From Eledone cirrhosa (lineage: Eukaryota), in NCBI GenBank assembly GCA_964016885.1, contig OZ024743.1:205096001-205160000 (forward strand): 64,000 nt of DNA, given 5' to 3'. The translations under genes were made by a program, and so were the position numbers. Positions 2,731 through 60,222 of this stretch are shown here, one piece after another. Positions within the stretch are counted from its first letter, which is position 1. The number at the start of each line of letters is the position of its first letter. The notes under the pieces are model-generated. The model worked only from the letters and a program-made list of their open reading frames with translations. It was not told the DNA's origin and made no database searches.

Positions 2731-2774
<44 letters not shown>

Positions 2775-2959
2775 GATAAATCTACCAAGAGTTTACGGTA
2801 GTGTCCAATCCGTATGAAGAACTCAATGTATTCCGGATATCATGGAAAGAAGAGATGTAATGAAAAACGACTTTCGGTGAAAGATAAACGGTATACATAG
2901 TCAAGATAAAATATTAAACAAATAATGAATAAACAATTCCTTATATTAAACAAAAAAAG

Positions 2960-3114
2960 TTCATTATTTAACGATCGTTTCTAGGATATATATGTGTTAT
3001 AATTGGTATGCATATTCAACAGATCTATGTACAAAATTATACAAAATTATACAAATTATCAAGATTAAATATACATACCAAACACATATATACGCCGTCT
3101 TCAGAAATAATGAA
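2960..3114 (-). ncRNA. Type I hammerhead ribozyme motif (copy in inverted PLE unit)
   Basis: Reverse complement of the 12133-12287 motif. Confidence 0.7.
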
Positions 3115-3923
3115 GTATATTTATTGATAATAACAACAATTCAAAATTTCAGTTCAAAATTGACCAATGAAAACACAAAGGGTTAAATGCAGTTCGGTGT
3201 GTGTATATACATGTAAAACCCTTACACATATTTTACAAAAATGTATGTATAATTTGTATACGCATACTAAAAGGATGGATGCAAATACGAAATTTCAAGG
3301 TTAATGTCTCTGTGAGATTACAATGCGCAGATAAGATACTTATGAAATCAAGTATATAAATATATTTTTTCATACTCACACATATCAGTACAATCACACA
3401 TACACGCGCGTATATGCATAAATATACACATAACCACGAACATACAGACACACACACACCCCCACTCACATTTATATATGTGGATATAAAATCATAAGCA
3501 CATGGATATTAATTCACTCACATAAAACACTGGCACACACATTTCTAGATCAAGATACAGAAATTAGGTGGGAGGGGGGGGAGGGGTCAGTATTCAACTG
3601 TCTGAGCAAACTGTCCAATATAAATGTATCTATAAATTAAGAAAAATAAAAAAATAAAACAATAAAATATAATAAATATAATATAATATACATACACATA
3701 CAGATATATACACATACATACATGTACGCACACATAGAAATATTTACGCATACACACATACACACATACATATACAGTCATACACACACATACACTTACA
3801 CGAACATACACATACACATATATAAAGATATATATATATACACACACACACACACACGCAACACATACACACATACACATATATATAAAAATAAATAATA
3901 AAGATATATACCTATATATATAT

Positions 3924-3970
<47 letters not shown>

Positions 3971-4369
3971 GACACACATACATCTAAATATACATACACA
4001 TACATACACACATACATGTACATACATGTACATACATATACGCACATCGATATACATATATATATATATACATATATATATATACACACACATAGACATG
4101 TAGATACATACACACACAACTTACATACACACATATATATATACATGTATATTCATACATAGAATTAGATATATAATCATACATACTTATGCACTTACTT
4201 ATACTCATATATACAAATACATACGCATCTATATATGCATATATACATAAAAAAAACTACAACCTCACCTAACTCAGACATACAAATAAAAATAATAATA
4301 AAAAGGCATATGTATATACATACACACACGCATTAATAGAGATATATATATAGAGACACATACATACAC

Positions 4370-4402
<33 letters not shown>

Positions 4403-4432
4403 TATATATATATATATATACACACATACACT

Positions 4433-4474
<42 letters not shown>

Positions 4475-4541
4475 GATATCCACACACTCATACCACCATA
4501 AATACACATACAAACACCCACATATATATATATATACACAC

Positions 4542-4596
<55 letters not shown>

Positions 4597-4690
4597 TATA
4601 CATACATACATACACATACATACATACATATAAACATATACATACATAAATACACACATACTAATAAAGACATATATTCACACATAGACA

Positions 4691-4736
<46 letters not shown>

Positions 4737-5875
4737 TATATACATATATACACACACACATATACACAGACACATATACACACTCACATATATATATGTG
4801 TGTGTGCGCACACACACATATGTACACACACACACACAAATACACATAAACACATACATATGCATACATGCACACACACACACACATATATCACATAGAT
4901 ACGAAGATAAACATATAAATAGAGAGACATACATATATATACAACACACATACACACACATACATACACACGCATATACATATACATATATATATATATA
5001 CATATATATATTCCTATATATACATGCATACACATATATACACATATATACACATACATACACATATACGTACACACATTCACATACACATACATATATA
5101 ATGCATATATACACATATATACATACATATACACACTCATATATACACACGCAATCTTACATTCATATTTGCATGCGCATATATGTATTTTTATATTTAG
5201 ATATAAATACCCAAACCTATATAGACACCTACCTACATATATATTCATACATAGACGCTTACAAATACAGATGATAATAGTATGGGGGAAAGGGGGGGTT
5301 TGGAGAAGGGGATCAAAGTAAATATATGTTTCAAGAAACATAGAAAATTTTCCGTATTTTTATCCAATGTATGTTCTTACATATTTTCAGTGTTAGGAAA
5401 TACGACAAACAAGAACCAAGGCAAAATCTATGCATCTCAAAATAAATAAGTATATCATTAATCATATGTTAACTAAACCAAAGATAGTCAACATATTGAT
5501 TTCTAAGGTGTAAATTAGTTAGGTTTATAATATTTGAAGCAGAATTTTGAAGTCAAACAGTAGTAGATTATTAATTACAGTATAACTAAATTAAAGTTAA
5601 TAACGTTATGGTATCAATATTAGGAAATGAATTTAGTAATAGGGAAAAAAATAAAATAAAGTATTACATCGGTAGTAGAATATAAATTATATGTTAACTA
5701 AATTAAAAATTATATATTTATTTCAATAGTATATGTTAATTAGGTATACAATACATAAAGCAGATACTGTATTTCATCAATAGCATAATATAATTATATG
5801 CAAATAGAAATCAAAATTAATACGCATACATATACATATACATACACATACACATATACATACATATACACACAC

Positions 5876-5920
<45 letters not shown>

Positions 5921-6444
5921 TACATACATACACATACACATACACACACACACATACACATACACATATACATATACATATCTTTTTCAAAAAAATTGCA
6001 TAGAATATATTAACTAGGTATATATCCAAAACGCATCCCATTCTATGATTACATGACATTCTGCAATTCGTCTGTATAAGGATACTAATTTTAAGCAAAT
6101 TAAAATTAAAATTTTTAGGTTGATTAAAACTAAAACCAAATAATAAATATATTTCTAAAATGTATATTAATTAGGTCTATAATACTAAAAATTATTTCTC
6201 TGTCATTGGATACACGATATTATTTTGTTATATTTTATCTGTAAAAGAGTTATAATAAAAGGTTTAAATAAATTAAAATTAATCTATAAATTAAATTACT
6301 AAGTATATATTAGTAATATTTAAAGGTTTTTCACAATTTATGATTACATAATATTTTATATTCTCATCTGTAATAAAATATTAATTAAATTAAATTTATA
6401 GGTTAACTAACATTTAAATTAAATTAATTTCTAAAATAATGTTA

Positions 6445-8886
6445 TTAATTAGGTTTATAATATTTAAATGTTTTTTTTAGTTTATGATTACACGATATAA
6501 TTAATTCCTGTCGTTTATTTAATAAGATATCCTTAGACTTCATTATTTCAAATAGTTCTTGGGAACATAATCTACATTCATTTCTATTATTTTGATAAGG
6601 GGTGGCTCTTTTGAGCACACTCCAGGTCAAATCATATTTTATATTCTTATTTTTATAACTATTGATTTTTTCTGCTAGAGATGTTGTATTAGCCAGTGCG
6701 GCATTTTTAAAACTATGCTTGTGGGTATTAAACCTTGTCTTAAAATTGTTAGAGGTAGCTCCTATATATGAGCAAATAGAATCTTTAGTTTTAACATTAC
6801 ATTTATAGACTATGTTGTTAACAAGACAATTCCCTTTTAATGGGCAGTTTGCTTTGTTTCTACAGTTACATCCTTTCGTTAATTCTGTATTTGAGGAGAT
6901 ATTATGGTTAATTTGATGTACTGGTGGTATACTTATGGTTTTCTTACATTTATATGCATTATATGCACTTATATTTTGTTTTATGTTATTTGTTGTAGAG
7001 TATGAGAATTTAACTGTAGACCTATTTAAGATTTGATGGTATTTGTGGTTTGGCGGGAAGTTTTTCTCAAGGATATAAAAAAATTTTTTAGCAATATTAT
7101 CCTTAACTTGTAAATTAAAAGGAGCATTATACCAAGTAACCCGTCTATTACGGTTTCTATGTTGTTTATTATTTTTATTATTTTTATAGGTTGTATCGTG
7201 ATTTTTACTAGGAGGATTAATGTTAATGATCTCACCACAACTATTTTTAGTTATATTTGTAGATTTAGGTGTTTTATCTTTTTTATTAGGAGTTTTATTA
7301 TTAATATTTATTATAGTTGTATGATGAGTAGTTTTTTGAGAGTTACTATACTTTATATTAGAAGATTTAGTATTTTGGGGTATAGTGTGGGTGGCATTTA
7401 GGTGTGTACTTTTCATTTGGTGTTTGTTGGTAATATTATGTTGTATGCTTTCAGTATTTTTAGTAGAAGGTATATACTCTAATCTATTTTTGTGGCCACT
7501 TCTATCTAGAGCTTCGTTATAGAAGGTCGCATTTTTATCAAATACATCTTGGTTAGAAGAAAGGTTAGAAATTCTAAGTGATATATTATATGCAAGGTTT
7601 TTAAGGATAGATTTAGGGTGATTAGATTGTGAGTGTATGTAATGTAAGTTTTGGTTAGGTTTATGGTAAGGTTGGTAGATACCCGTAGCTAAATCTAAAG
7701 TTATATCTAGGAAATTTACTACTTTACTTGTTTTTTCAAAAGTAATATTAAGATTATAATAGTCTTTAAGGAAAGTTCTAATATGTTTTTTGTTTTTTTC
7801 GATTTCTGAAAGGCTAAGGTTGTTAGAAAGAAGAAGACAGTCATCACGATATAAACCACCTTTGAGGTGGGGAAAAGAGGCATTTATGTTGAAAAGGAGA
7901 AAGAGGCCCACAAGATCAGTAATTTGGGCGGAATCGCTTGAACCCATAGTAATATCAAAAAGATTACTGTATGTGTTTCTGGTCCAGTATTCATTCTGAA
8001 ATTCAATAAGTGTTAGTCTAGCATGTGTAATAATGTTAATGTCATCCAAAGTTAAGTTAGATCTATTTTTAGCAAATATCAATGCTTTGTTCAGGAGTAT
8101 AGGTGATATAGAAGAATAGTAATTATCTATATCAAATTGTAGGAAAGAAGCAGAAGATTTACACCTAATATTTTTAAACCAGTTAATTACCTGGGAGGTG
8201 TTTTCCCAGAGTGGTAAAATAACGTGTTTTCTTATTTGTGGGATGACTCTATCTAAAATTTTTTTGCTAATTATTCCAATATCTGATTTGGAGGGACATA
8301 TAAGTCTAATAGAAGGATTTGAGTTAAAGTTAGATTTGTGATCTTTCAGGTTGAAGTGTGGTCTTTTCAATGCCAAAGGTTCAGTTCTATCTTCAATGTT
8401 TAGTTTTTTTACTATGTTGTGTGTTTTGTTGTTGATGTTGGTGAGTGACACATTATTAGATTTTTTATAATTTTTTCTGAGTTCTTTATATATGAACTCG
8501 TTATAATGTTCAATATCCATATGATACAAATTACCAGTTTTGTCCGAGTGGACATGGATTTTTTTAGACTTTTTTAGGTCCAATAGGGTAGAATCAAGGT
8601 CCTTTTGAAAGACGGATTTATACTTTTTAAATTTGAGGTGTTTAATTAAATTAAAAAGGTCTTTCTCGAAGTCTTCAAGTAAAAAGTTGTGTGGTGGATT
8701 CTTGTAAGTATTGAAATCATACATATATTTCCGATCTGCTTGTTTAGATTTTCTATCGAAGTGGTAGGCTCTCCATCTAACCCTTCTGATAAAATTATTA
8801 GTTTTCTGAATCATAAGGAGTAAGAAGTCGTCCTTAGAAGGTATTGGTATGTTTTTCAAGGAGGTTCCTAAATATTGTTTTTCCAT
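6445..8886 (-). CDS. PLE reverse transcriptase + C-terminal GIY-YIG endonuclease, intact (813 aa from first ATG)
   Basis: RT motifs DKTGN, PSIRLI, QFDIDNYYSSI, ITMGS, LYRDD, VNFLDITL, YHKP. CNCRNKANCPLKGNC linker, then IVY...YIGAT...FKTRFNTH, CRLC..E, LNKRQEL, C.H. The ORF track start at 8907 is a TTG; first ATG is 8886. Confidence 0.92.
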   Translation of the reverse strand: MEKQYLGTSLKNIPIPSKDDFLLLMIQKTNNFIRRVRWRAYHFDRKSKQADRKYMYDFNTYKNPPHNFLLEDFEKDLFNLIKHLKFKKYKSVFQKDLDSTLLDLKKSKKIHVHSDKTGNLYHMDIEHYNEFIYKELRKNYKKSNNVSLTNINNKTHNIVKKLNIEDRTEPLALKRPHFNLKDHKSNFNSNPSIRLICPSKSDIGIISKKILDRVIPQIRKHVILPLWENTSQVINWFKNIRCKSSASFLQFDIDNYYSSISPILLNKALIFAKNRSNLTLDDINIITHARLTLIEFQNEYWTRNTYSNLFDITMGSSDSAQITDLVGLFLLFNINASFPHLKGGLYRDDCLLLSNNLSLSEIEKNKKHIRTFLKDYYNLNITFEKTSKVVNFLDITLDLATGIYQPYHKPNQNLHYIHSQSNHPKSILKNLAYNISLRISNLSSNQDVFDKNATFYNEALDRSGHKNRLEYIPSTKNTESIQHNITNKHQMKSTHLNATHTIPQNTKSSNIKYSNSQKTTHHTTIININNKTPNKKDKTPKSTNITKNSCGEIININPPSKNHDTTYKNNKNNKQHRNRNRRVTWYNAPFNLQVKDNIAKKFFYILEKNFPPNHKYHQILNRSTVKFSYSTTNNIKQNISAYNAYKCKKTISIPPVHQINHNISSNTELTKGCNCRNKANCPLKGNCLVNNIVYKCNVKTKDSICSYIGATSNNFKTRFNTHKHSFKNAALANTTSLAEKINSYKNKNIKYDLTWSVLKRATPYQNNRNECRLCSQELFEIMKSKDILLNKRQELIISCNHKLKKTFKYYKPN

Positions 8887-9198
8887 TGTGATATGGATGA
8901 TGGACAATTGAAAGAGCTCAACTAAATGTATATGGGTTTACAAAATCATACATATATATATGTTTATACATAAATATAAAATTAATACACACATACAGTA
9001 CAAAAATACGAATATTTCCGTGAAAATAGGAGCAAAATTATGTAGATAAATCTACCAAGAGTTTACGGTAGTGTCCAATCCGTATGAAGAACTCAATGTA
9101 TTCCGGATATCATGGAAAGAAGAGATGTAATGAAAAACGACTTTCGGTGAAAGATAAACGGTATACAGAGTCAAGATAAAATATTAAACAAATAATGA

Positions 9199-10344
9199 TA
9201 TATGTATATGTGTGTGTATATGTATGTATATGTGTATGTGTATGTATATGTATATGTATGCGTATTAATTTTGATTTCTATTTGCATATAATTATATTAT
9301 GCTATTGATGAAATACAGTATCTGCTTTATGTATTGTATACCTAATTAACATATACTATTGAAATAAATATATAATTTTTAATTTAGTTAACATATAATT
9401 CATATTCTACTACCGATGTAATACTTTATTTTATTTGTTTCCCTATTACTAAATTCATTTCCTAATATTGATACCATAACGTTATTAACTTTAATTTAGT
9501 TATACTGTAATTAATAATCTACTACTGTTTGACTTCAAAATTCTGCTTCAAATATTATAAACCTAACTAATTTACACCTTAGAAATCAATATGTTGACTA
9601 TCTTTGGTTTAGTTAACATATGATTAATGATATACTTATTTATTTTGAGATGCATAGATTTTGCCTTGGTTCTTGTTTGTCGTATTTCCTAACACTGAAA
9701 ATATGTAAGAACATACATTGGATAAAAATACGGAAAATTTTCTATGTTTCTTGAAACATATATTTACTTTGATCCCCTTCTCCAAACCCCCCCTTTCCCC
9801 CATACTATTATCATCTGTATTTGTAAGCGTCTATGTATGAATATATATGTAGGTAGGTGTCTATATAGGTTTGGGTATTTATATCTAAATATAAAAATAC
9901 ATATATGCGCATGCAAATATGAATGTAAGATTGCGTGTGTATATATGAGTGTGTATATGTATGTATATATGTGTATATATGCATTATATATGTATGTGTA
10001 TGTGAATGTGTGTACGTATATGTGTATGTATGTGTATATATGTGTATATATGTGTATGCATGTATATATAGGAATATATATATGTATATATATATATGTA
10101 TATGTATATGCGTGTGTATGTATGTGTGTGTATGTGTGTTGTATATATATGTATGTCTCTCTATTTATATGTTTATCTTCGTATCTATGTGATATATGTG
10201 TGTGTGTGTGTGCATGTATGCATATGTATGTTTATGTGTATTTGTGTGTGTGTGTGTACATATGTGTGTGTGCGCACACACACATATATATATGTGAGTG
10301 TGTATATGTGTCTGTGTATATGTGTGTGTGTATATATGTATATA

Positions 10345-10390
<46 letters not shown>

Positions 10391-10484
10391 TGTCTATGTG
10401 TGAATATATGTCTTTATTAGTATGTGTGTATTTATGTATGTATATGTTTATATGTATGTATGTATGTGTATGTATGTATGTATA

Positions 10485-10535
<51 letters not shown>

Positions 10536-10655
10536 CTTTATTATTATAATATAACTTATGTGTATGTATGTATAAGTGAGGTTGTGTACGTGTATATAAT
10601 ATGTGTATATATAAGTGTATTTAATGTATATATATATGTGCATGTCTGTTTTTTA

Positions 10656-10700
<45 letters not shown>

Positions 10701-10769
10701 GTGTGTATATATATATATATATGTGGGTGTTTGTATGTGTATTTATGGTGGTATGAGTGTGTGGATATC

Positions 10770-10813
<44 letters not shown>

Positions 10814-10843
10814 AGTGTATGTGTGTATATATATATATATATA

Positions 10844-10876
<33 letters not shown>

Positions 10877-11275
10877 GTGTATGTATGTGTCTCTATATAT
10901 ATATCTCTATTAATGCGTGTGTGTATGTATATACATATGCCTTTTTATTATTATTTTTATTTGTATGTCTGAGTTAGGTGAGGTTGTAGTTTTTTTTATG
11001 TATATATGCATATATAGATGCGTATGTATTTGTATATATGAGTATAAGTAAGTGCATAAGTATGTATGATTATATATCTAATTCTATGTATGAATATACA
11101 TGTATATATATATGTGTGTATGTAAGTTGTGTGTGTATGTATCTACATGTCTATGTGTGTGTATATATATATATGTATATATATATATATGTATATCGAT
11201 GTGCGTATATGTATGTACATGTATGTACATGTATGTGTGTATGTATGTGTATGTATATTTAGATGTATGTGTGTC

Positions 11276-11322
<47 letters not shown>

Positions 11323-12340
11323 ATATATATATAGGTATATATCTTTATTATTTATTTTTATATATATGTGTATGTGTGTATGTGTTGCGTGTGTGTGTGT
11401 GTGTATATATATATATATCTTTATATATGTGTATGTGTATGTTCGTGTAAGTGTATGTGTGTGTATGACTGTATATGTATGTGTGTATGTGTGTATGCGT
11501 AAATATTTCTATGTGTGCGTACATGTATGTATGTGTATATATCTGTATGTGTATGTATATTATATTATATTTATTATATTTTATTGTTTTATTTTTTTAT
11601 TTTTCTTAATTTATAGATACATTTATATTGGACAGTTTGCTCAGACAGTTGAATACTGACCCCTCCCCCCCCCTCCCACCTAATTTCTGTATCTTGATCT
11701 AGAAATGTGTGTGCCAGTGTTTTATGTGAGTGAATTAATATCCATGTGCTTATGATTTTATATCCACATATATAAATGTGAGTGGGGGTGTGTGTGTGTC
11801 TGTATGTTCGTGGTTATGTGTATATTTATGCATATACGCGCGTGTATGTGTGATTGTACTGATATGTGTGAGTATGAAAAAATATATTTATATACTTGAT
11901 TTCATAAGTATCTTATCTGCGCATTGTAAGCTCACAGAGACATTAACCTTGAAATTTCGTATTTGCATCCATCCTTTTAGTATGCGTATACAAATTATAC
12001 ATACATTTTTGTAAAATATGTGTAAGGGTTTTACATGTATATACACACACCGAACTGCATTTAACCCTTTGTGTTTTCATTGGTCAATTTTGAACTGAAA
12101 TTTTGAATTGTTGTTATTATCAATAAATATACTTCATTATTTCTGAAGACGGCGTATATATGTGTTTGGTATGTATATTTAATCTTGATAATTTGTATAA
12201 TTTTGTATAATTTTGTACATAGATCTGTTGAATATGCATACCAATTATAACACATATATATCCTAGAAACGATCGTTAAATAATGAACTTTTTTTGTTTA
12301 ATATAAGGAATTGTTTATTCATTATTTGTTTAATATTTTA
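9199..12340 (+). repeat. 5' pseudo-LTR of the PLE (about 3.1 kb, largely TA/TG/TATG microsatellite mosaic)
   Basis: Near-identical to about 15631-18780 (offset 6432-6440) and to the inverted copy at about 2907-5886. Confidence 0.88.
12133..12287 (+). ncRNA. Type I hammerhead ribozyme motif with about 115-nt stem II
   Basis: Stem I TTCATTATTT (12133-12142) pairs with AAATAATGAA (12278-12287). Core CTGAAGA at 12143-12149. Stem II pairs TATATATGTGTT/AACACATATATA and TGGTATGTATATT/AATATGCATACCA. GAAA at 12266-12269, palindromic stem III C-GATC-G, predicted cleavage after GTT at 12277. Confidence 0.72.
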
Positions 12341-12630
12341 TCTTGACTCTGTATACCGTTTATCTTTCACCGAAAGTCGTTTTTCATTACATCTCTTCTT
12401 TCCATGATATCCGGAATACATTGAGTTCTTCATACGGATTGGACACTACCGTAAACTCTTGGTAGATTTATCTACATAATTTTGCTCCTATTTTCACGGA
12501 AATATTCGTATTTTTGTACTGTATGTGTGTATTAATTTTATATTTATGTATAAACATATATATATGTATGATTTTGTAAACCCATATACATTTAGTTGAG
12601 CTCTTTCAATTGTCCATCATCCATATCACA

Positions 12631-15072
12631 ATGGAAAAACAATATTTAGGAACCTCCTTGAAAAACATACCAATACCTTCTAAGGACGACTTCTTACTCC
12701 TTATGATTCAGAAAACTAATAATTTTATCAGAAGGGTTAGATGGAGAGCCTACCACTTCGATAGAAAATCTAAACAAGCAGATCGGAAATATATGTATGA
12801 TTTCAATACTTACAAGAATCCACCACACAACTTTTTACTTGAAGACTTCGAGAAAGACCTTTTTAATTTAATTAAACACCTCAAATTTAAAAAGTATAAA
12901 TCCGTCTTTCAAAAGGACCTTGATTCTACCCTATTGGACCTAAAAAAGTCTAAAAAAATCCATGTCCACTCGGACAAAACTGGTAATTTGTATCATATGG
13001 ATATTGAACATTATAACGAGTTCATATATAAAGAACTCAGAAAAAATTATAAAAAATCTAATAATGTGTCACTCACCAACATCAACAACAAAACACACAA
13101 CATAGTAAAAAAACTAAACATTGAAGATAGAACTGAACCTTTGGCATTGAAAAGACCACACTTCAACCTGAAAGATCACAAATCTAACTTTAACTCAAAT
13201 CCTTCTATTAGACTTATATGTCCCTCCAAATCAGATATTGGAATAATTAGCAAAAAAATTTTAGATAGAGTCATCCCACAAATAAGAAAACACGTTATTT
13301 TACCACTCTGGGAAAACACCTCCCAGGTAATTAACTGGTTTAAAAATATTAGGTGTAAATCTTCTGCTTCTTTCCTACAATTTGATATAGATAATTACTA
13401 TTCTTCTATATCACCTATACTCCTGAACAAAGCATTGATATTTGCTAAAAATAGATCTAACTTAACTTTGGATGACATTAACATTATTACACATGCTAGA
13501 CTAACACTTATTGAATTTCAGAATGAATACTGGACCAGAAACACATACAGTAATCTTTTTGATATTACTATGGGTTCAAGCGATTCCGCCCAAATTACTG
13601 ATCTTGTGGGCCTCTTTCTCCTTTTCAACATAAATGCCTCTTTTCCCCACCTCAAAGGTGGTTTATATCGTGATGACTGTCTTCTTCTTTCTAACAACCT
13701 TAGCCTTTCAGAAATCGAAAAAAACAAAAAACATATTAGAACTTTCCTTAAAGACTATTATAATCTTAATATTACTTTTGAAAAAACAAGTAAAGTAGTA
13801 AATTTCCTAGATATAACTTTAGATTTAGCTACGGGTATCTACCAACCTTACCATAAACCTAACCAAAACTTACATTACATACACTCACAATCTAATCACC
13901 CTAAATCTATCCTTAAAAACCTTGCATATAATATATCACTTAGAATTTCTAACCTTTCTTCTAACCAAGATGTATTTGATAAAAATGCGACCTTCTATAA
14001 CGAAGCTCTAGATAGAAGTGGCCACAAAAATAGATTAGAGTATATACCTTCTACTAAAAATACTGAAAGCATACAACATAATATTACCAACAAAAACCAA
14101 ATGAAAAGTACACACCTAAATGCCACCCACACTATACCCCAAAATACTAAATCTTCTAATATAAAGTATAGTAACTCTCAAAAAACTACTCATCATACAA
14201 CTATAATAAATATTAATAATAAAACTCCTAATAAAAAAGATAAAACACCTAAATCTACAAATATAACTAAAAATAGTTGTGGTGAGATCATTAACATTAA
14301 TCCTCCTAGTAAAAATCACGATACAACCTATAAAAATAATAAAAATAATAAACAACATAGAAACCGTAATAGACGGGTTACTTGGTATAATGCTCCTTTT
14401 AATTTACAAGTTAAGGATAATATTGCTAAAAAATTTTTTTATATCCTTGAGAAAAACTTCCCGCCAAACCACAAATACCATCAAATCTTAAATAGGTCTA
14501 CAGTTAAATTCTCATACTCTACAACAAATAACATAAAACAAAATATAAGTGCATATAATGCATATAAATGTAAGAAAACCATAAGTATACCACCAGTACA
14601 TCAAATTAACCATAATATCTCCTCAAATACAGAATTAACGAAAGGATGTAACTGTAGAAACAAAGCAAACTGCCCATTAAAAGGGAATTGTCTTGTTAAC
14701 AACATAGTCTATAAATGTAATGTTAAAACTAAAGATTCTATTTGCTCATATATAGGAGCTACCTCTAACAATTTTAAGACAAGGTTTAATACCCACAAGC
14801 ATAGTTTTAAAAATGCCGCACTGGCTAATACAACATCTCTAGCAGAAAAAATCAATAGTTATAAAAATAAGAATATAAAATATGATTTGACCTGGAGTGT
14901 GCTCAAAAGAGCCACCCCTTATCAAAATAATAGAAATGAATGTAGATTATGTTCCCAAGAACTATTTGAAATAATGAAGTCTAAGGATATCTTATTAAAT
15001 AAACGACAGGAATTAATTATATCGTGTAATCATAAACTAAAAAAAACATTTAAATATTATAAACCTAATTAA
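12631..15072 (+). CDS. PLE reverse transcriptase + C-terminal GIY-YIG endonuclease, intact (813 aa from first ATG)
   Basis: Same protein as 6445-8886 apart from one visible substitution (ITNKNQ vs ITNKHQ). No stops or frameshifts. Confidence 0.92.
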   Translation: MEKQYLGTSLKNIPIPSKDDFLLLMIQKTNNFIRRVRWRAYHFDRKSKQADRKYMYDFNTYKNPPHNFLLEDFEKDLFNLIKHLKFKKYKSVFQKDLDSTLLDLKKSKKIHVHSDKTGNLYHMDIEHYNEFIYKELRKNYKKSNNVSLTNINNKTHNIVKKLNIEDRTEPLALKRPHFNLKDHKSNFNSNPSIRLICPSKSDIGIISKKILDRVIPQIRKHVILPLWENTSQVINWFKNIRCKSSASFLQFDIDNYYSSISPILLNKALIFAKNRSNLTLDDINIITHARLTLIEFQNEYWTRNTYSNLFDITMGSSDSAQITDLVGLFLLFNINASFPHLKGGLYRDDCLLLSNNLSLSEIEKNKKHIRTFLKDYYNLNITFEKTSKVVNFLDITLDLATGIYQPYHKPNQNLHYIHSQSNHPKSILKNLAYNISLRISNLSSNQDVFDKNATFYNEALDRSGHKNRLEYIPSTKNTESIQHNITNKNQMKSTHLNATHTIPQNTKSSNIKYSNSQKTTHHTTIININNKTPNKKDKTPKSTNITKNSCGEIININPPSKNHDTTYKNNKNNKQHRNRNRRVTWYNAPFNLQVKDNIAKKFFYILEKNFPPNHKYHQILNRSTVKFSYSTTNNIKQNISAYNAYKCKKTISIPPVHQINHNISSNTELTKGCNCRNKANCPLKGNCLVNNIVYKCNVKTKDSICSYIGATSNNFKTRFNTHKHSFKNAALANTTSLAEKINSYKNKNIKYDLTWSVLKRATPYQNNRNECRLCSQELFEIMKSKDILLNKRQELIISCNHKLKKTFKYYKPN

Positions 15073-15596
15073 TAACATTATTTTAGAAATTAATTTAATT
15101 TAAATGTTAGTTAACCTATAAATTTAATTTAATTAATATTTTATTACAGATGAGAATATAAAATATTATGTAATCATAAATTGTGAAAAACCTTTAAATA
15201 TTACTAATATATACTTAGTAATTTAATTTATAGATTAATTTTAATTTATTTAAACCTTTTATTATAACTCTTTTACAGATAAAATATAACAAAATAATAT
15301 CGTGTATCCAATGACAGAGAAATAATTTTTAGTATTATAGACCTAATTAATATACATTTTAGAAATATATTTATTATTTGGTTTTAGTTTTAATCAACCT
15401 AAAAATTTTAATTTTAATTTGCTTAAAATTAGTATCCTTATACAAACGAATTGCAGAATGTCATGTAATCATAGAATGGGATGCGTTTTGGATATATACC
15501 TAGTTAATATATTCTATGCAATTTTTTTGAAAAAGATATGTATATGTATATGTGTATGTGTATGTGTGTGTGTGTATGTGTATGTGTATGTATGTA

Positions 15597-15630
<34 letters not shown>

Positions 15631-15641
<11 letters not shown>

Positions 15642-16778
15642 GTGTGTGTATATGTATGTATATGTGTATGTGTATGTATATGTATATGTATGCGTATTAA
15701 TTTTGATTTCTATTTGCATATAATTATATTATGCTATTGATGAAATACAGTATCTGCTTTATGTATTGTATACCTAATTAACATATACTATTGAAATAAA
15801 TATATAATTTTTAATTTAGTTAACATATAATTTATATTCTACTACCGATGTAATACTTTATTTTATTTTTTTCCCTATTACTAAATTCATTTCCTAATAT
15901 TGATACCATAACGTTATTAACTTTAATTTAGTTATACTGTAATTAATAATCTACTACTGTTTGACTTCAAAATTCTGCTTCAAATATTATAAACCTAACT
16001 AATTTACACCTTAGAAATCAATATGTTGACTATCTTTGGTTTAGTTAACATATGATTAATGATATACTTATTTATTTTGAGATGCATAGATTTTGCCTTG
16101 GTTCTTGTTTGTCGTATTTCCTAACACTGAAAATATGTAAGAACATACATTGGATAAAAATACGGAAAATTTTCTATGTTTCTTGAAACATATATTTACT
16201 TTGATCCCCTTCTCCAAACCCCCCCTTTCCCCCATACTATTATCATCTGTATTTGTAAGCGTCTATGTATGAATATATATGTAGGTAGGTGTCTATATAG
16301 GTTTGGGTATTTATATCTAAATATAAAAATACATATATGCGCATGCAAATATGAATGTAAGATTGCGTGTGTATATATGAGTGTGTATATGTATGTATAT
16401 ATGTGTATATATGCATTATATATGTATGTGTATGTGAATGTGTGTACGTATATGTGTATGTATGTGTATATATGTGTATATATGTGTATGCATGTATATA
16501 TAGGAATATATATATGTATATATATATATGTATATGTATATGCGTGTGTATGTATGTGTGTGTATGTGTGTTGTATATATATGTATGTCTCTCTATTTAT
16601 ATGTTTATCTTCGTATCTATGTGATATATGTGTGTGTGTGTGTGCATGTATGCATATGTATGTGTTTATGTGTATTTGTGTGTGTGTGTGTACATATGTG
16701 TGTGTGCGCACACACACATATATATATGTGAGTGTGTATATGTGTCTGTGTATATGTGTGTGTGTATATATGTATATA

Positions 16779-16826
<48 letters not shown>

Positions 16827-16920
16827 TGTCTATGTGTGAATATATGTCTTTATTAGTATGTGTGTATTTATGTATGTATATGTTTATATGTATGTATGTA
16901 TGTGTATGTATGTATGTATA

Positions 16921-16977
<57 letters not shown>

Positions 16978-17099
16978 CTTTATTATTATAATATAACTTA
17001 TGTGTATGTATGTATAAGTGAGGTTGTGTACGTGTATATAATATGTGTATATATAAGTGTATTTAATGTATATATATATATGTGCATGTCTGTTTTTTA

Positions 17100-17144
<45 letters not shown>

Positions 17145-17211
17145 GTGTGTATATATATATATATGTGGGTGTTTGTATGTGTATTTATGGTGGTATGAGT
17201 GTGTGGATATC

Positions 17212-17253
<42 letters not shown>

Positions 17254-17283
17254 AGTGTATGTGTGTATATATATATATATATA

Positions 17284-17316
<33 letters not shown>

Positions 17317-17715
17317 GTGTATGTATGTGTCTCTATATATATATCTCTATTAATGCGTGTGTGTATGTATATACATATGCCTTTTTATTATTATTTTTAT
17401 TTGTATGTCTGAGTTAGGTGAGGTTGTAGTTTTTTTTATGTATATATGCATATATAGATGCGTATGTATTTGTATATATGAGTATAAGTAAGTGCATAAG
17501 TATGTATGATTATATATCTAATTCTATGTATGAATATACATGTATATATATATGTGTGTATGTAAGTTGTGTGTGTATGTATCTACATGTCTATGTGTGT
17601 GTATATATATATATGTATATATATATATATGTATATCGATGTGCGTATATGTATGTACATGTATGTACATGTATGTGTGTATGTATGTGTATGTATATTT
17701 AGATGTATGTGTGTC

Positions 17716-17762
<47 letters not shown>

Positions 17763-18772
17763 ATATATATATAGGTATATATCTTTATTATTTATTTTTA
17801 TATATATGTGTATGTGTGTATGTGTTGCGTGTGTGTGTGTGTGTGTATATATATATATCTTTATATATGTGTATGTGTATGTTCGTGTAAGTGTATGTGT
17901 GTGTATGACTGTATATGTATGTGTGTATGTGTGTATGCGTAAATATTTCTATGTGTGCGTACATGTATGTATGTGTATATATCTGTATGTGTATGTATAT
18001 TATATTATATTTATTATATTTTATTGTTTTATTTTTTTATTTTTCTTAATTTATAGATACATTTATATTGGACAGTTTGCTCAGACAGTTGAATACTGAC
18101 CCCTCCCCCCCCCTCCCACCTAATTTCTGTATCTTGATCTAGAAATGTGTGTGCCAGTGTTTTATGTGAGTGAATTAATATCCATGTGCTTATGATTTTA
18201 TATCCACATATATAAATGTGAGTGGGGGTGTGTGTGTGTCTGTATGTTCGTGGTTATGTGTATATTTATGCATATACGCGCGTGTATGTGTGATTGTACT
18301 GATATGTGTGAGTATGAAAAAATATATTTATATACTTGATTTCATAAGTATCTTATCTGCGCATTGTAAGCTCACAGAGACATTAACCTTGAAATTTCGT
18401 ATTTGCATCCATCCTTTTAGTATGCGTATACAAATTATACATACATTTTTGTAAAATATGTGTAAGGGTTTTACATGTATATACACACACCGAACTGCAT
18501 TTAACCCTTTGTGTTTTCATTGGTCAATTTTGAACTGAAATTTTGAATTGTTGTTATTATCAATAAATATACTTCATTATTTCTGAAGACGGCGTATATA
18601 TGTGTTTGGTATGTATATTTAATCTTGATAATTTGTATAATTTTGTATAATTTTGTACATAGATCTGTTGAATATGCATACCAATTATAACACATATATA
18701 TCCTAGAAACGATCGTTAAATAATGAACTTTTTTTGTTTAATATAAGGAATTGTTTATTCATTATTTGTTTA

Positions 18773-18780
<8 letters not shown>
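15631..18780 (+). repeat. 3' pseudo-LTR of the PLE
   Basis: Direct repeat of 9199-12340. Terminates at ...GTTTAATATTTTA joined to (TA)n. Confidence 0.88.
18573..18727 (+). ncRNA. Type I hammerhead ribozyme motif (3' pLTR copy)
   Basis: Same sequence as 12133-12287 at offset 6440. Confidence 0.7.
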
Positions 18781-18804
<24 letters not shown>

Positions 18805-18818
18805 CATACATCTATATA

Positions 18819-18880
<62 letters not shown>

Positions 18881-18905
18881 ATATATATATACATACATCT
18901 ATATA

Positions 18906-18943
<38 letters not shown>

Positions 18944-18950
18944 TGTATAT

Positions 18951-21900
18951 ATCATCATCATCATCATCATCATCGTTTAACGTCCATGTTCCACGCTTGC
19001 ATGGGTTTGGACGGGAGTTTTCCCACTTGAGGCAAGAGTGGTTGTCTTGCTCGCATAGGACTGTCTGGTGGGTTTTCTACAGCTGGATGCCCTTCCTAAC
19101 ACCAACCACATTTACAGTGTGGGACTGGGAGGTTTTTACCGTGTTGCCTACACGGCCACATTACAGCGTGGACTGTTTTTTTTTTTTGTTTTTTTTTGTC
19201 GTGACACCTACACGAACTCATTTGTTTCGGCCTGGATGATGTGGCACCAACATAACTTTACATTGAAAGGGGCGGTGTGGATGGGGTGGGGGTGGTGGGA
19301 CGGGGGTGTGTTTTGTTAGAGATGCCTACTGACTGTAGTAGGTTTTACTTTGTATTTAGGTAAGGCGGGTCTTCTCTATTACTGAGTACCGCCAAAGGTC
19401 TTGGTCCAGTGACATTGTCTTGGAGAGGTGTAAGCGTGTGAGGTTGGAATTTATCAGCTCGTCCCAGGTTTTTCTGGGTCTGCCTACTCCGTGGCTACCA
19501 TCTATCTTTATTGCCCTGCACTTTGCTATACAGCTGTTGTCTTTCATGCGCATCACGTGACCATACCAACGTAGCCTTCTCTCGAGTAAACATCTGATCC
19601 CTCTTATTTCTTATTTTTTCCTTAGTTCGTTTATGCTTTGCCGTTCACGTATATTACTATTACACATCCAGCGGAGCATGCAAGCTTCGTTCCTCTCTAG
19701 TCTGCGTATATCCTCTGCACACAATGCCCAGGTCTCACTGCCATGCAACATTGCTGTTCGTATGCAGGCATCATACAACCTTTCATTTTTAGGGAGAACC
19801 CTTTAGCGGCTAATAGTGGTATAAGCTCTCTGAACTTTTTCCATCCAGTTCTGACTCTAGCTACTGTACTTTCAGAGCACCCTCCCCCACTGCTGATTTT
19901 GTCACCCAGGCAACGGAAGCTGTCCACTATTTCTATAGAACCCTCTGTGCAATTGAAAGAGCTAGTATTTTGTGGGCACTTGCTGCTACTTTTTGCACCA
20001 GAGCACCGGCCATATGTAAAATCTGTGTTCTTAGTTAGCTTACCTGTGATCCCACTACATCTTTTATGCACCCATACTTTGCATTTGGGACATAAAATGG
20101 AGTTTCTACCTACGCCTTTCCTACACACTGAGCATGGCCATTTCTCGGAAGGCACCGGCGCCTTATTTTCTTTCCTACAAACTAGAACTTTAGTCTTAGC
20201 CAGGTTAATTTTAAGGCCTTTTGATTCTAGGCCGTGCTTCCATGTTTGGAATTTCTTCTCTAGCTCGGCCATTGATTCAGCTATGAGCGTTAGATCATCT
20301 GCGTATAGGAGTTCCCATGGGCAGCCGGTCTTGAACTCCTCTGTTATAGCCTGAAGGGCAATAATAAATAGTAGGGGGCTAAGAACAGAGCCCTGATGGA
20401 CACCAACTTTTACGCTAAACTCTTCACTATATTCATTGTTAATTCTAACCTTGCTGACTGTTTCTTTATACATGGCTTGTATAGCTCTCATAAGCCATTC
20501 GTCAACACCTAGTTTTCTAAGAGCCCACCAGATAATGGAACGGGGGACTCTGTCGAAGGCTTTCTCCAAGTCGACAAAAGCTAAGTATAGGGGTTTACTT
20601 TTAGCTAGGTACTTCTCCTGTAGTTGCCGTAAAATGAAAAGAGCGTCTGTGGTACTTTTGCCTGACACAAACCCGAACTGCATTTCATCTAGATCAATTC
20701 TCTCTCTGATTAGTTGCGCTATTACTTTTTCCGTGACCTTCATGACCTGGTCGATTAATTTAATGCCTCTATAGTTACTCCTATCTAGGGCGTCTCCTTT
20801 ACTCTTGTAACAGTTTTAGGAAATAAATATCGGTGTACATGCAACATAATATAAAAGACAGTAAATACTGGTGTGTGTGTGCGTAATAAAGTTTTACTTC
20901 ATAGAAGTCAAAAGGCATATAATATAAGGGTTTGTTACCCGATGGTAATAATACAATTCTGAAGTTGGTAGAAACATCTTGGCGCTCTCACCTCAGGCTG
21001 CAAGCTGCATTGTGCTTGGTAACGAAAGGGTCGTCCAGAAGGAATCACAAGCTATGGTCGAAGGTGTTACCACTTCAGGAATCAGGAGGCGAGAGGGAGA
21101 TTTTGCGGTAAACCGCTCCTTTTATATCTGTTGCCCGTAAGTGACCACCAGGGAGTCTGGTCAATCCCAAAGGGAAGCAACTCCACCTACTTCCTGTCTA
21201 GAGAGCAGTGATTAGATTGTCGTGGCAGGGGAGGCAACTCTTACTACATTATCCCCCGCCAGATTTTGAAAACATAAAAATCGAAAGAAGCATGCATGGA
21301 GTAAGATGGCGAGCATGTAAGAGGCATGAATATGTAGCAGTAGCCTCCCTTGTTGTGACTCACAACCCCAATAGATTGACATCTAGACGGGAAATAGAAC
21401 CCTTTCTGTAACTTCCGGCAGAGCCCTATAAAACGAATAGCTCTCGGCTCTCTCCCTCTCATTTGCCCTTCCGGCGCCTGGCCTTCGCCAGGCGTCTCGC
21501 GTTTGCCTGGCAATCAAAACGGTAACTAACAGTTAATGATGATGCTGCTACGCCAGTCCTTCGGAACAACCCCATTCTGTATGACTTGGTTTACTATCCG
21601 GGTGACCATGGTGTGTCCCACCGTTCCAGAGGCCTTCAGCATCTCAGCAACTATTTCCGAAGGCCCAGCCGCCTTACCCGTCTTCATATCTTTGATTGCC
21701 TTACTTATTATACTACCTTCAACTAACACTGCTGGTCCCTCTATTGGATCGATCTGGGGGAGACTATCCTTCTCCCATTTATTCTCCTTATTTAGTAGCC
21801 TCTCGTAGTGACACTTCCAAGCGACCTTCTTATCAGCGTCAGTGATGGCGAGTACGCCATCATCATTTAGTACACACTTCTCCCCAACAATATCACGGTT

Positions 21901-23345
21901 TTCCTTGACTCATTGCCTAGCAATCCTGAACACCTCACGTTTTTGGTCCTCGCGTTGTAGAACATGCTTGAACTTTCTTTCCTCTGCTTCCCTTCTTGCG
22001 AAGTACACTTGTCTCCTAGCTTCCCTCCTGGCCACTTGATAGTCTTCTCTACTTCCCCCATCCCGCCATACTTTCCAAGCCTGCTTTTTGGCCTTAATCG
22101 ACTCCTCCACCTTACTGTTCCACCACCATGTTACTCTCCTCCTGCCTATAGGCCTGCTCCGGCCACAGACTTCGTCTGCCGCCATCAGCAGGTTTGCTTT
22201 CAGGAATTCCCACTGTTCCTCTATATTGTACGACTCTAAATGCTCTTCCTTACTGTCGAAAGCATCAAGTAATATGCTTTGAAATTTATTTCTGGCTGTG
22301 GGGTCCTTTAGCTTCCATATTTTTCTCCTGAGGATAGTCCTCTTCTGCTGTCGGGTACGTCTCGTCCTGACTATGAGGTCGCTAATTATCAGTCTATGTT
22401 GGGAGGTGCATTCTTCATGGGGGAGGGATTTAGTGTTTACAACAGTCACTCTGTCACGTCTTCTGGTAAGGATATAATCTACCTGGCTGGTATGTTCCCC
22501 TGATCTGTAGGTGATCAAGTGATTGTCTCGTTTTTTGAAGTTAGTGTTACAGATTGTTAGGTTATTTGCGTCACAGAATTCCAGGATTCTGGAGCCTTCC
22601 TCATTTCTAGTACCAAACCCATAGCCTCCATGGATTCCATCATAGCCGTCACAATGTTGTCCAACGTGACCATTTAGGTCGCCAGCAATAATTATATAGT
22701 CACTGTCGGTTATTTGGGAGGTAGTGAGCATCAGTGTCTCATAGAAAGTGTCTTTTATAGCGCCAGGCAGTCTGGATGGGGGTGCGTACGCAGATATTAT
22801 CGTCACAGTAGTTCTATTTAGAACAAGTCTTATTTTAATTATTCTGTCGTTTACTCTATTTACGTCTATTATCTTATCCGCCCATTTTTCTGCTAACATG
22901 ATTCCTACCCCACCCAGCCCATTGTCATTTCCCACCCAGAAAAGCTTATAGCATCGTTTTTTATCCACAATGAATCTAGCAGACCCGCCCCTCCACCTGG
23001 TCTCTTGGATGCAGCAGACATCAACCTCCTTACGTTCAAGCATTTCTACAACCTCGTTTGAGCGGCCTTTTAAGGTCCCTACATTCATGGTACCAACTCT
23101 GAAGTTTTGGATTGCGTTTGGTGTATGGGGTGCAGGGAGGGGTGAGGTTGATGGGGTTGGGGTTATGTTGGCCATCTGCGGCCGCAACAAAGAGGGTGGG
23201 GCTTTGCCCTTTCGTCCGGCAGCATGAGGTGAATTTGTCGTTATCTTTTGCATTGTCTTCGGGTGTCCAGATTCTTCTGACTCTCCAGAAATTCCCTAGT
23301 TCATCCATCATATCGAAAAAGCAACCAGAAGTGTTAGCATAGGTC
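18951..23345 (-). mobile_element. Near full-length RTE LINE (family A), disrupted
   Basis: APE endonuclease in ORF 21910-23253 (GTMNVGTL...CIQETRW...AGDLNGH...VDYIL...HRLI). RT in 21526-21729 and 19697-20743, then Cys-rich insert, C-terminus, 3' UTR and (CAT)n on the plus strand. Contains stops, frameshifts and a nested insertion. 5' boundary approximate. Confidence 0.9.
20816..21526. mobile_element. Unclassified ~0.7 kb insertion inside the RTE RT, flanked by 8-bp direct repeat TAACAGTT
   Basis: Splits the RT motif IINC/YKSKGDALDRSNYRGI. TAACAGTT at 20808-20815 and 21527-21534. No clear TIRs or coding similarity. Confidence 0.75.
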
Positions 23346-24344: not shown

Positions 24345-24378
<34 letters not shown>

Positions 24379-24380
<2 letters not shown>

Positions 24381-25820
24381 GAATCAATGGCCGAGCTAGA
24401 GAAGAAATTCCAAACATGGAAGCACGGCCTAGAATCAAAAGGCCTTAAAATTAATCTGGCTAAGACCAAAGTTCTAGTTTGTAGGAAAGAAAATAAGGCG
24501 GCGATCCCTTCCGGGAAGTGGCCATACTCAGTGTGTAGGAAAGGCGTAGGTAGAAACTCCATTTTGTGTCAGAAATGCAAAGTATGGGTGCATAAAAGAT
24601 GTAGTGGGATCACAGGTAAGCTAACCAAGAACATAGATTTCACATGTGGCCGGTGCTCTGGTGCAATAAGTAGCAGCAAGTGCCCACAAAATACTAGCTC
24701 TTTCAACTGCGCAGAGGGCTCTATAGAAATAGTGGACAGCTTCCGTTGCCTGGGTGACAAAATCAGCAGTGGGGGAGGGTGCTCTGAACGTACAGTAGCT
24801 AGAGTCAGAACTGGATGGAAAAAGTTCAGAGAGCTTATACCACTATTAGCCGCTAAAGGGTTCTCCCTAAAAATGAAAGGCAGGTTGTATAATGCCTGCA
24901 TACGAACAGCAATGTTGCATGGCAGTGAGACCTGGGCATTGTGTGCAGAGGATATATGCAGACTAGAGAGGAACGAAGCTTGCATGCTCCGCTGGATGTG
25001 TAATAGTAATATACGTGAACGGCAAAGCATAAACGAACTAAAGAAAAAATTAGAAATAAGAGGGATCAGATGTTGTTTACTCGAGAGAAGGCTACGTTGG
25101 TATGGACACGCGATGCGCATGAAAGTCGATAGCTGTATAACAAAGTGCAGGGCAATAAAGATAGACGGTAGCCACGGAATAGGCAGACCTAGAAAAACCT
25201 GGGACGAGCTGATAAATTCCGACCTCACACACTTACACCTCTCCAAGACAATGTCACTGGACCGAGACCTTTGGCGGTACTCAGTAACAGAGAAGACCCG
25301 CCTTACCTAAATACAAAGTAAAACCTACTACAGTCAGTAGGCATCACTAACAAAATACACCCCCGTCCCACCACCCCCACCCCATCCACACCGCCCCTTT
25401 CAATGTAAAGTTATGTTGGTGCCACAACATCCAGGCCGAAACAAATGAGATCGTGTAGGTGTCATGACAAAAAAAACACTCAGTCCACGCTGTAATGTGG
25501 CCGTGTAGGCAACACGGTAAAAACCTCCCAGCCCCACACTGTAAATGTGGTTGGTGTTAGGAAGGGCATCCAGCTGTAGAAAACCCGCCAGACAGTCCAC
25601 GCTGTAATGTGGCCGTGTAGGCAACACGGTAAAAACCTCCCAGCCCCACACCGTAAATGTGGTTGGTGTTAGGAAGGGCATCCAACTGTAGAAAACCCGC
25701 CAGACAGTCCTATGCGAGCAATGACAACCACTCTTGCCTCAAGTGGGAAAACTCCCGTCCAAACCCATGCAAGCGTGGAACACGAACGTTAAACGTTGAT
25801 GATGATGATGATGATGATGA
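24379..25820 (+). mobile_element. RTE LINE (family A), 5'-truncated
   Basis: ORF 24387-25310 is the uninterrupted Cys-rich insert plus RTE C-terminus. 3' UTR has a 112-bp tandem duplication and a (GAT)n tail. Confidence 0.9.
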
Positions 25821-27462: not shown

Positions 27463-27597
27463 ATAGGAACGAGTGGGACCCCGACGGCTGAGCTCAAGCC
27501 GTTTCGACGGCTAATTCTGGACGCGTTTAGAATTAGCGTCCAGAATTAGCCGTCGAAACGGCTTGAGCTCAGCCGTCGGGGTCCCACTCGTTCCTAT
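27463..27597. repeat. Perfect inverted repeat, 62-bp arms, 11-nt loop, containing the 3' half of a hammerhead core
   Basis: Arms 27463-27524 and 27536-27597. Each contains GAAAC-GGCT-tgagctc-AGCC-GTC. Confidence 0.9.
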
Positions 27598-27801: not shown

Positions 27802-27954
27802 GTATAGATTTTGAGTTTATGTTGGTTGTATACCAACACCTCAGTATGCAGGCTGGAGCACTCGACGAAGTGCGCAGGTTGGTTTGGTTACTCCGGAGTA
27901 GTGTAAAATAAAGTTAAATAAAAGTCAAATGATTAAAATTTAGCTTCGTTTATT

Positions 27955-28009
27955 ACTGCTATATATATTTCAGTGACAGCCATCTTTGACTGTTACCTCT
28001 TCAGGCAGT
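27955..28009 (-). ncRNA. Minimal type I hammerhead ribozyme motif (mirror copy)
   Basis: Reverse complement of 28230-28284. Confidence 0.75.
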
Positions 28010-28229
28010 TTGAATTAGTATGGTATAGACAAGTACATATGTTGTTTAGGTGTATAATATTGTCAATACTCTGATATGCCCAGTTCCTTGTTGGGTTGTT
28101 AATTTACTGAGGAACTGACTCCAGTTCCTCAGTGAATTAACAACCCAACAAGGAACTGGGCATATCAGAGTATTGACAATATTATACACCTAAACAACAT
28201 ATGTACTTGTCTATACCATACTAATTCAA

Positions 28230-28284
28230 ACTGCCTGAAGAGGTAACAGTCAAAGATGGCTGTCACTGAAATATATATAGCAGT
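28230..28284 (+). ncRNA. Minimal type I hammerhead ribozyme motif
   Basis: ACTGC-CTGAAGA-GGTAACAGTC(aaagat)GGCTGTCACT-GAAA-TATATA-TA-GCAGT. Stem I ACTGC/GCAGT, palindromic stem III, immediately followed by AATAAA. Confidence 0.78.
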
Positions 28285-55160: not shown

Positions 55161-59452
<4,292 letters not shown>

Positions 59453-59453
<1 letters not shown>

Positions 59454-59854: not shown

Positions 59855-59887
<33 letters not shown>

Positions 59888-60140: not shown

Positions 60141-60222
60141 TACATATATATACATATACATATATACATATATATACATATACATATATACATATATATA
60201 CATATACATATATATATATATA

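Follow-up and report, generated by a model that had tools for sequence, protein, structure and literature searches.

How does a retroelement come to carry the very repeat into which its clade inserts, and does this matter for the surrounding genome? The question is raised by a stretch of about 3.1 kb that occurs three times in the window (the whole 64-kb stretch of Eledone cirrhosa DNA analysed here), and that a preliminary description took to be a pseudo-LTR (pLTR) of a Penelope-like element (PLE), built mostly from microsatellite. Our reading is that a young PLE with Hydra-clade motifs lies in a (TA)n array, and that the mosaic in its tail likely grew in place by slippage and is likely passive cargo. 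We give this reading about an even chance, and rank it ahead of capture of host DNA, a one-off at this locus, a retained intron and an RNA-editing ratchet.

The insertion spans 2769–18781 and makes up 25% of the window. Its plus arm consists, on the forward strand, of copy A of the repeated stretch (9199–12341), a 5' leader of 289 nt (12342–12630), an intact ORF of 813 aa (12631–15072), and a 3' region of 3,709 nt (15073–18781) that ends 64 nt past the predicted hammerhead cleavage site; the unit measures 6,440 nt from hammerhead to hammerhead. The 3' region runs through 463 bp of AT-rich DNA, a TG/TA block at 15536–15692, approximately 680 bp of unique sequence, mosaic B at 16370–18000, and approximately 780 bp with hammerhead B. 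The inverted arm (2769–9198, minus strand) starts 43 nt beyond the point of hammerhead cleavage and holds an intact ORF (8886–6445) that differs from the plus-arm ORF in one amino acid, followed by a 3' region with copy C (5886–2906), which is the inverted recurrence of copy A with a 169-bp deletion and a hammerhead core at 3104, and by a tail of 137 nt (2905–2769). A tandem copy with an adjacent inverted copy and a tail is a layout met in EN+ PLEs, where a partial tandem (the pLTR) is accompanied by an adjacent inverted copy and optionally a tail (PMC8557442). The unit structure, the ORF with reverse transcriptase (RT) and GIY-YIG-type domains, the hammerhead and the tandem/inverted layout thus bear out the assignment of the stretch to a PLE pLTR. 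Its length of 3.1 kb has to be read differently, although the repeated stretch is real: because a PLE pLTR is a 5'-truncated upstream copy (PMC8557442), 3.1 kb reflects the point of truncation, and the element-level feature is the 3,709-nt 3' region. The truncation point of copy A lies within a (TA)15 tract, equivalent to 15605–15635, which is joined, at 1 nt of microhomology, to the 5' end of the inverted arm. A junction would fall in such a tract by chance with a probability of 3.4–5.5%, but the join involves 5' ends and not an end at which priming takes place.

Both outer ends of this single insertion lie within one host TA array, of which the left part occupies 2606–2771 and the right part 18782–18952, and which is flanked on either side by the (ATG)n tail of a LINE copy, the two LINEs being convergent. 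Among named animal matches to the neighbouring LINE, the highest identity is to Octopus vulgaris (66%), and one match of 73% carries a bacterial MAG label. The last unit of the left part (approximately 57 bp) recurs at the right junction, and a 20-nt marker motif, which the window contains at 2715, 18803 and 18890 and nowhere else, suggests a candidate target-site duplication of approximately 55–75 bp, the length of which is ambiguous because the motif occurs twice in the right part. An insertion nested in a TA tract of the element itself is not favoured as the origin of the inversion, since that tract adjoins the 5' end of the inverted arm while both 3' ends lie in the host array; nor is an assembly fold-back artefact, given that the two flanking LINE copies are not the same (93% identity) and that each arm stops at its own position.

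The identity of the ORF rests on its homologues and on motif scans. It has 323 homologues at E ≤ 1e-30, a YRDD motif and an aligned GIY-YIG-type C-terminus; searches of the ORF itself against Pfam returned no RT or GIY-YIG match, one of 12 aligned members showed a weak Pfam GIY-YIG match, and the profile weakly matched a retron RT. The motifs comprise RWR at residue 37, aligned to RWK of the homologues, DKT (a modified DKG) at residue 115, invariant in 12/12 aligned sequences, a CxCx5C linker (CNCRNKANC) at 673, CRLC at 771 and CNH at 799, while a CxxC between the two halves of the GIY-YIG motif and a CCHH in the endonuclease were both absent. RWK, DKT, CxCx5C, the lack of CCHH, and CxxC plus CxH near the end form the diagnostic set of the Hydra clade (PMC8557442). 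Judged from these motifs, the hammerhead, the layout and the TA target, the element is a Hydra-type EN+ PLE. At 6,440 nt the unit departs from the description of the clade as generally short (<3 kb), a trait that is descriptive and not diagnostic in its source. In a tree of 63 homologues, among which there were no reference Hydra RTs, the query fell in a 9-member group together with both named octopod proteins (support 0.99, midpoint root). One homologue, P0012, resembles Hydra-1_Amil by eye only. The best homologue identity was 48% among near-full-length matches and 55% among fragments, and the protein collection searched held no protein identical to either of the two ORFs. Membership in Naiad/Chlamys was rejected on the C-terminal endonuclease and the hammerhead, compared with the N-terminal endonuclease and no canonical hammerhead there, and membership in Neptune, Nematis or Poseidon was rejected as their DKG and CCHH motifs were not found in the element.

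A scan with a consensus core located a type I hammerhead motif near the 3' end of all three copies. In copy A it lies at 12133–12287 on the plus strand, with a 10-bp stem I, the core at 12143, a 116-nt stem II insert, a palindromic stem III and predicted cleavage after 12277; hammerhead B lies at 18573–18727. No hammerhead arose in 500 dinucleotide shuffles of the 3' region (0/500), and the Rfam search at gathering threshold gave no hammerhead match. A palindromic helix III and a dimeric fold have been described for hammerheads (PMC4209133). Downstream of the motif, at 12318–12327 on the plus strand, lies a second copy of the stem I 5' strand, which is predicted to pair with the 3' strand and thereby disfavour the ribozyme fold (−53.0 kcal/mol for the predicted alternative and −47.5 kcal/mol for the ribozyme). 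In this folding model the second strand out-competes the ribozyme and would favour read-through templates.

Comparison of the three copies, which the preliminary description had called almost identical and which are indeed approximately 99% identical, informs on both age and growth. Copies A and B (15631–18781) form a direct repeat with 99.4% identity over 3,156 columns and differ by three substitutions and six indels of 2–6 bp each, while B and C differ by one substitution, three small indels and the 169-bp deletion, which joins two (TA)n tracts. The ORF-bearing bodies of the two arms show two substitutions and no indels over 3,311 bp, indicating that the insertion event is very young. All nine distinct indel sites among the copies fall within simple repeats, eight of them in the mosaic and none in the body, indicating that the mosaic is a slipping array; the three copies were all drawn from one locus, and a comparison among them does not polarise the indels. 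Copy A is the odd one out, as B and C agree against it at three substitutions and three indels. This agreement suggests that the donor already had two differing mosaic copies, in which case the mosaic is probably present at another locus; alternatively, B and C could owe their closeness to gene conversion between the inverted arms.

The mosaic itself occupies 9938–11560 in copy A on the plus strand (T 783, C 62, A 462, G 316), or 9897–11574 when taken as the segment of alternating purines and pyrimidines, and consists of an aperiodic alternation of T with a purine in TA, TG and TATG. Its length of 1.62–1.68 kb is approximately a fifth below the 2 kb first given, and the flanks at 9261–9937 and 11561–12340 (approximately 1.45 kb) are mostly non-microsatellite. 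Whether the pLTR is "mostly" microsatellite depends on the measure: the share of copy A is 51.6% by alternation and 53.9% by TRF with the lenient mismatch penalty, which supports the word marginally, but 28.4% by TRF with the strict one, and perfect repeats of at least 12 bp cover 15.0%. The presence of several pure (TA)n tracts is clear, as copy A contains 13 of (TA)6 or more, five of which are 33–41 bp long. On the sense strand, 37 blocks of the mosaic are G-type, two are C-type and four are mixed, although these blocks are not independent of each other, and host arrays were strand-polar in four of the five tested (249:26, 41:1, 21:2 and 16:1). G fills 41% of the purine slots in the mosaic and 15–17% in three host arrays, whereas the tail mosaic of the second PLE of the window is C-polar on the sense strand. 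Among TA arrays beside (ATG)n tails, four of the five main cases are G-polar and one is neutral, with counter-examples elsewhere. Internal duplications of the mosaic did not exceed a Markov model (one repeated non-simple 20-mer, where the model gave means of 9.0 and 16.4). A long unit copied by segmental duplication or telomerase-like reiteration was rejected as a source because repeated 16–24-mers were not above Markov simulations, and strand-symmetric, independent point mutation of (TA)n was ruled out by the polarity, though the host arrays are equally polar.

Compared with relatives, the real oddity is the 3.7-kb post-stop region and not the 3.1-kb pLTR. We scanned contigs for relatives and obtained nine loci, from assemblies labelled bacterial MAGs that are probably host DNA; a downstream hammerhead could be scored at eight ORF ends in seven of the nine loci, while L004 had no scorable end and L001 is cut at the contig end, with approximately 127 nt from stop to hammerhead by eye. 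The distance from stop codon to hammerhead is 3,513 nt here and 82–196 nt at the eight ORF ends, making it approximately 18–43 times longer than in the relatives examined, and none of their scored tails has a TA tract between stop and hammerhead. The enlargement is not confined to the tail. The stem II insert is 116 nt long here and 11–24 nt in the related loci, and our measure of the RT-EN linker, which is expanded and N/K/T-rich, gives 119 aa against a median of 24 and a maximum of 72 in the 94 of 120 homologues where it was measurable. The expansion thus runs throughout the element, in mosaic, stem II and linker.

How such a tail would be copied can be sketched by analogy with Poseidon PAc, the protein of which nicks and extends both strands of AT-rich DNA in vitro (PMC11167929). 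In that system reverse transcription starts internally, on mainly uncleaved RNA, and the start site in relatives lies downstream of the hammerhead, on unprocessed RNA (PMC11167929). Here, both strands of the host TA array would be nicked and would prime two cDNAs, with starts +64 and +201 nt relative to the hammerhead site; joining of the two at their truncated ends would give the inverted layout. Repeat slippage would enlarge the mosaic inside the tail, between ORF and hammerhead, and the mosaic would then be copied as passive cargo at each retrotransposition. Because the mosaic lies between the ORF and the hammerhead on both arms, it is most likely part of the copied RNA, and, being upstream of the RT start sites, it would be copied each time. 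Two observations sit uneasily with growth in place: approximately 1.9 kb of the tail is non-repetitive, far above the 0.1–0.3 kb tails of relatives, and is unexplained by slippage; and no recent block-wise growth is seen, the largest indel being the 169-bp loss.

An unlikely but serious competitor is capture, in which host DNA was trapped between an upstream copy bearing the ORF and a downstream 3' end bearing the hammerhead in a neighbouring TA tract, and the chimera was afterwards fixed by a read-through RNA with priming at the downstream end. PLE ends do cluster at TA tracts in two of the related loci, L003 and L008, each of which has eight hammerhead motifs of several families adjoining short TA tracts. 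The tail here also looks intergenic in its alternation of unique and microsatellite blocks, a TG/TA tract marks the first of its block boundaries (15536), 463 nt past the stop codon, and the mosaic has a polarity like that of host arrays. However, no relic hammerhead was found past the stop codon, even when one core mismatch was allowed, and the tail contains no fragments of the common LINE or other repeats of the window, the unique tail segments giving low-complexity matches only. Plain 3' transduction or read-through would moreover put host DNA downstream of the hammerhead, not upstream, and capture leaves the expanded stem II and the protein linker unexplained.

It is improbable that the mosaic is a one-off, restricted to the present locus or a single donor, with its copies made by local duplication or fold-back while the tails of the family are short. 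The remaining 48 kb of the window indeed contains no other copy (tblastn matched the two ORFs only, and k-mers of the unique segments, 0/710–762, were not found elsewhere in the window), and no homologue exceeds 55% identity. Nevertheless, both outer ends lie in one TA array and share a marker motif that is absent from the rest of the window, each arm stops at its own position in the element in a layout that matches the published tandem/inverted PLE pattern (PMC8557442), and copy A is unlike both B and C at six sites.

Slightly less probable again is that the mosaic lies inside a spliceosomal intron of approximately 1.7 kb (9925–11616 in copy A) that is removed from the mRNA but retained in the RNA that transposes, as in other PLE pLTRs. 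When the 41 YAG acceptors are ranked by pyrimidine content, the top one lies approximately 56 nt past the mosaic, a 7/9 donor is found 13 nt ahead of the mosaic, and introns in pLTR/5' UTR regions of PLEs have been published (PMC8557442); but 15 of 414 GT sites score at least 7/9, making the donor unremarkable, the scoring against a splice consensus was crude, and 23 upstream ATGs would remain between the acceptor and the ORF.

Coleoids show heavy ADAR editing, and the least probable explanation is an editing ratchet, in which (UA)n dsRNA is edited from A to I by ADAR and RT fixes G, so that sense-strand TA becomes TG over successive rounds: the excess of G-type blocks, the raised share of G, predicted folding energies of −129 to −162 kcal/mol for each 400 nt of the sense RNA, and nearest named relatives that are octopod proteins all point that way, yet the host arrays are equally polar and the blocks not independent, the second PLE has the opposite polarity, and A/G changes account for only two of the seven substitutions among the copies.

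Growth in place therefore remains our preferred account of the mosaic, and we turn to whether its tracts act as targets. That the element carries its own target is literally true, since (TA)n is the published target of the clade and one unit contains 15 tracts of (TA)6 or more, six of them (TA)15 or more. The longer tracts are denser in the unit (0.93 per kb) than outside the insertion (0.29), and the insertion holds 16 of the 30 (TA)15+ tracts of the window. For tracts of (TA)6 or more the relation is reversed, with 4.46 per kb outside the element and 2.33 inside (outside, 1.65 without the three largest arrays), so targets do not appear to be limiting. The window has 8.6 kb of alternating DNA outside the insertion and 5.1 kb inside, and its TA arrays already host LINE tails and the second PLE. 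None of the 41 tracts of the insertion contains a nested element (0/41), the copies being young. Each full jump would add approximately 15 TA tracts, a real but probably minor target supply in a TA-rich genome, and positive feedback at genome scale is unproven. We regard as a long shot the full loop, in which the family disperses its own targets, every copy in the genome has a TA-rich tail and both later copies and other TA-targeting retroelements land in the carried tracts, perhaps with sense-strand A-to-I editing fixed as TG by RT, so as to give a measurable share of the compound TA/TG microsatellites of the host.

The locus nevertheless suggests that the same Hydra machinery can apparently move a 6.4-kb unit with approximately 1.7–1.8 kb of microsatellite, including the insertion repeat of the clade, and it provides a young, ORF-intact case for asking whether, in repeat-rich invertebrate genomes, transposons give rise to compound microsatellites and to landing sites of their own. 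Each jump would likely plant new TA target sites; if the feedback fails, what is left is an ordinary passenger effect, as in shrimp (PMC7878876). For annotators, repeat masking and short reads will split such elements at the mosaic, hiding the hammerhead-bearing end.

Among known systems, the element is most like the Hydra clade (PMC8557442), which includes Hydra-1_Obim of Octopus bimaculoides. It has a single RT-EN ORF, a type I hammerhead near the 3' end, RWK-type and DKT motifs, CxCx5C, no CCHH, and CxxC and CxH near the end, as well as a (TA)n target (reported for 26 of 27 Hydra families in File S1) and a tandem/inverted layout with a tail. Unlike the clade, the unit is 6.44 kb long instead of 2,084–2,729 bp in the complete listed families, its tail is 3.7 kb instead of the approximately 0.2–0.3 kb that we read by eye in three consensi, and its extra tail is 137 nt instead of 30–40 nt (PMC8557442). 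It further differs in its internal microsatellite mosaic, its 116-nt stem II insert and a linker approximately 95 aa above the median.

The closest precedent for the cargo comes from Litopenaeus vannamei, in which recently transposed Penelope copies (>98% identical) carry internal SSRs that moved with the element and then changed length, and Penelope carriage has been proposed as a route of SSR expansion, including that of long (AT)n (PMC7878876). The text available of that study does not give the clade, target preference or self-supplied targets, whereas here the repeat carried is the one reported as the target of the clade, and the mosaic can be placed within the unit. Poseidon PAc of Anolis carolinensis belongs to a different clade, prefers an ATT motif and has a hammerhead overlapping the ORF start; microsatellite cargo is not described in the portion of the source available (PMC11167929). 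Long PLEs in SSR-rich genomes are likewise found in Penaeus monodon, with consensi of 6.25 and 7.61 kb (PMC3124438), and in Octopus vulgaris, with 336 insertions of recently active PLEs that cover 1.83 Mb of 2.8 Gb at a mean of 5.4 kb (PMC13282606), though the available parts of these reports do not describe clade, tail length or microsatellite content; the Octopus vulgaris repeat library (PMC13282606) may already contain the family. In the literature covered, which lay mostly outside subscription papers and Repbase/Dfam, we found no description of a microsatellite tail of several kilobases in any Hydra element, nor of a self-supplied target loop. Microsatellite carriage by Penelope and (TA)n targeting by Hydra are already published, and what sets this element apart is its long microsatellite tail.

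Besides the young Hydra-clade Penelope-like element (PLE), the window carries one more PLE, a broken copy from a different clade, on the minus strand (60222–62905), flanked on both sides by TA arrays. This copy has Pfam matches to the reverse transcriptase (RT) and GIY-YIG domains, and DKG and a CCHH-type endonuclease were judged by eye. The tail of 0.6 kb includes a CA/TA mosaic of about 200 bp at 60587–60790; it also has, near 60360–60400, a motif that resembles a hammerhead but whose core is altered. Microsatellite in PLE tails may be a genome-wide habit.

A near-perfect palindrome of 436 bp (98%; 27902–28337) lies between TA-rich tracts and contains two outward-facing type I hammerhead motifs, with cores at 28235 on the plus strand and 28004 on the minus strand; it probably consists of two PLE 3′ ends in inverted orientation. 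A smaller palindrome of about 132 bp (93%; 27463–27597) has a TA array on either side. Outside the window, in loci with PLE relatives from the contig scan, clustered hammerhead-bearing PLE ends of several families adjoin short TA tracts in 9397–12135 of L003 and in the entire L008; the assemblies concerned, labelled bacterial MAGs, are probably animal DNA.

In the main element, the stem I strand of the hammerhead is duplicated 40 nt downstream, and an alternative hairpin is predicted from this duplicate in the region 12278–12327 (equivalents at 18718–18767 and 2969–2920). This arrangement could possibly serve as a built-in off switch for the hammerhead. The 5′ end of the inverted arm falls within the same segment of the unit.

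Two homogeneous minisatellites, of 51 bp × 21 (97%; 45974–47053) and 43 bp × 6 (98%; 48829–49093), were also found, as was a weak tRNA-like match (30 bits; 29523–29581, plus strand), possibly a SINE head.

A LINE family with an APE endonuclease, an RT, a C-terminal PHD finger and an (ATG)n tail is represented by copies at 903–2579 and 24375–25796 on the plus strand and at 18975–23295, 59471–59855 and 63708–64000 on the minus strand. A TA array directly adjoins the (ATG)n tail in all five copies, and four of the five arrays are G-polar when read on the LINE sense strand. The 4.3-kb TA-derived array at 55162–59453 shows strong strand polarity: on the minus strand, 249 blocks are G-type and 26 are C-type. 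The LINE tail adjoining this array and the tail at 63708–63992 share 99.6% identity across 285 bp. The TA arrays were either targeted or built by the LINE family with the (ATG)n tail.
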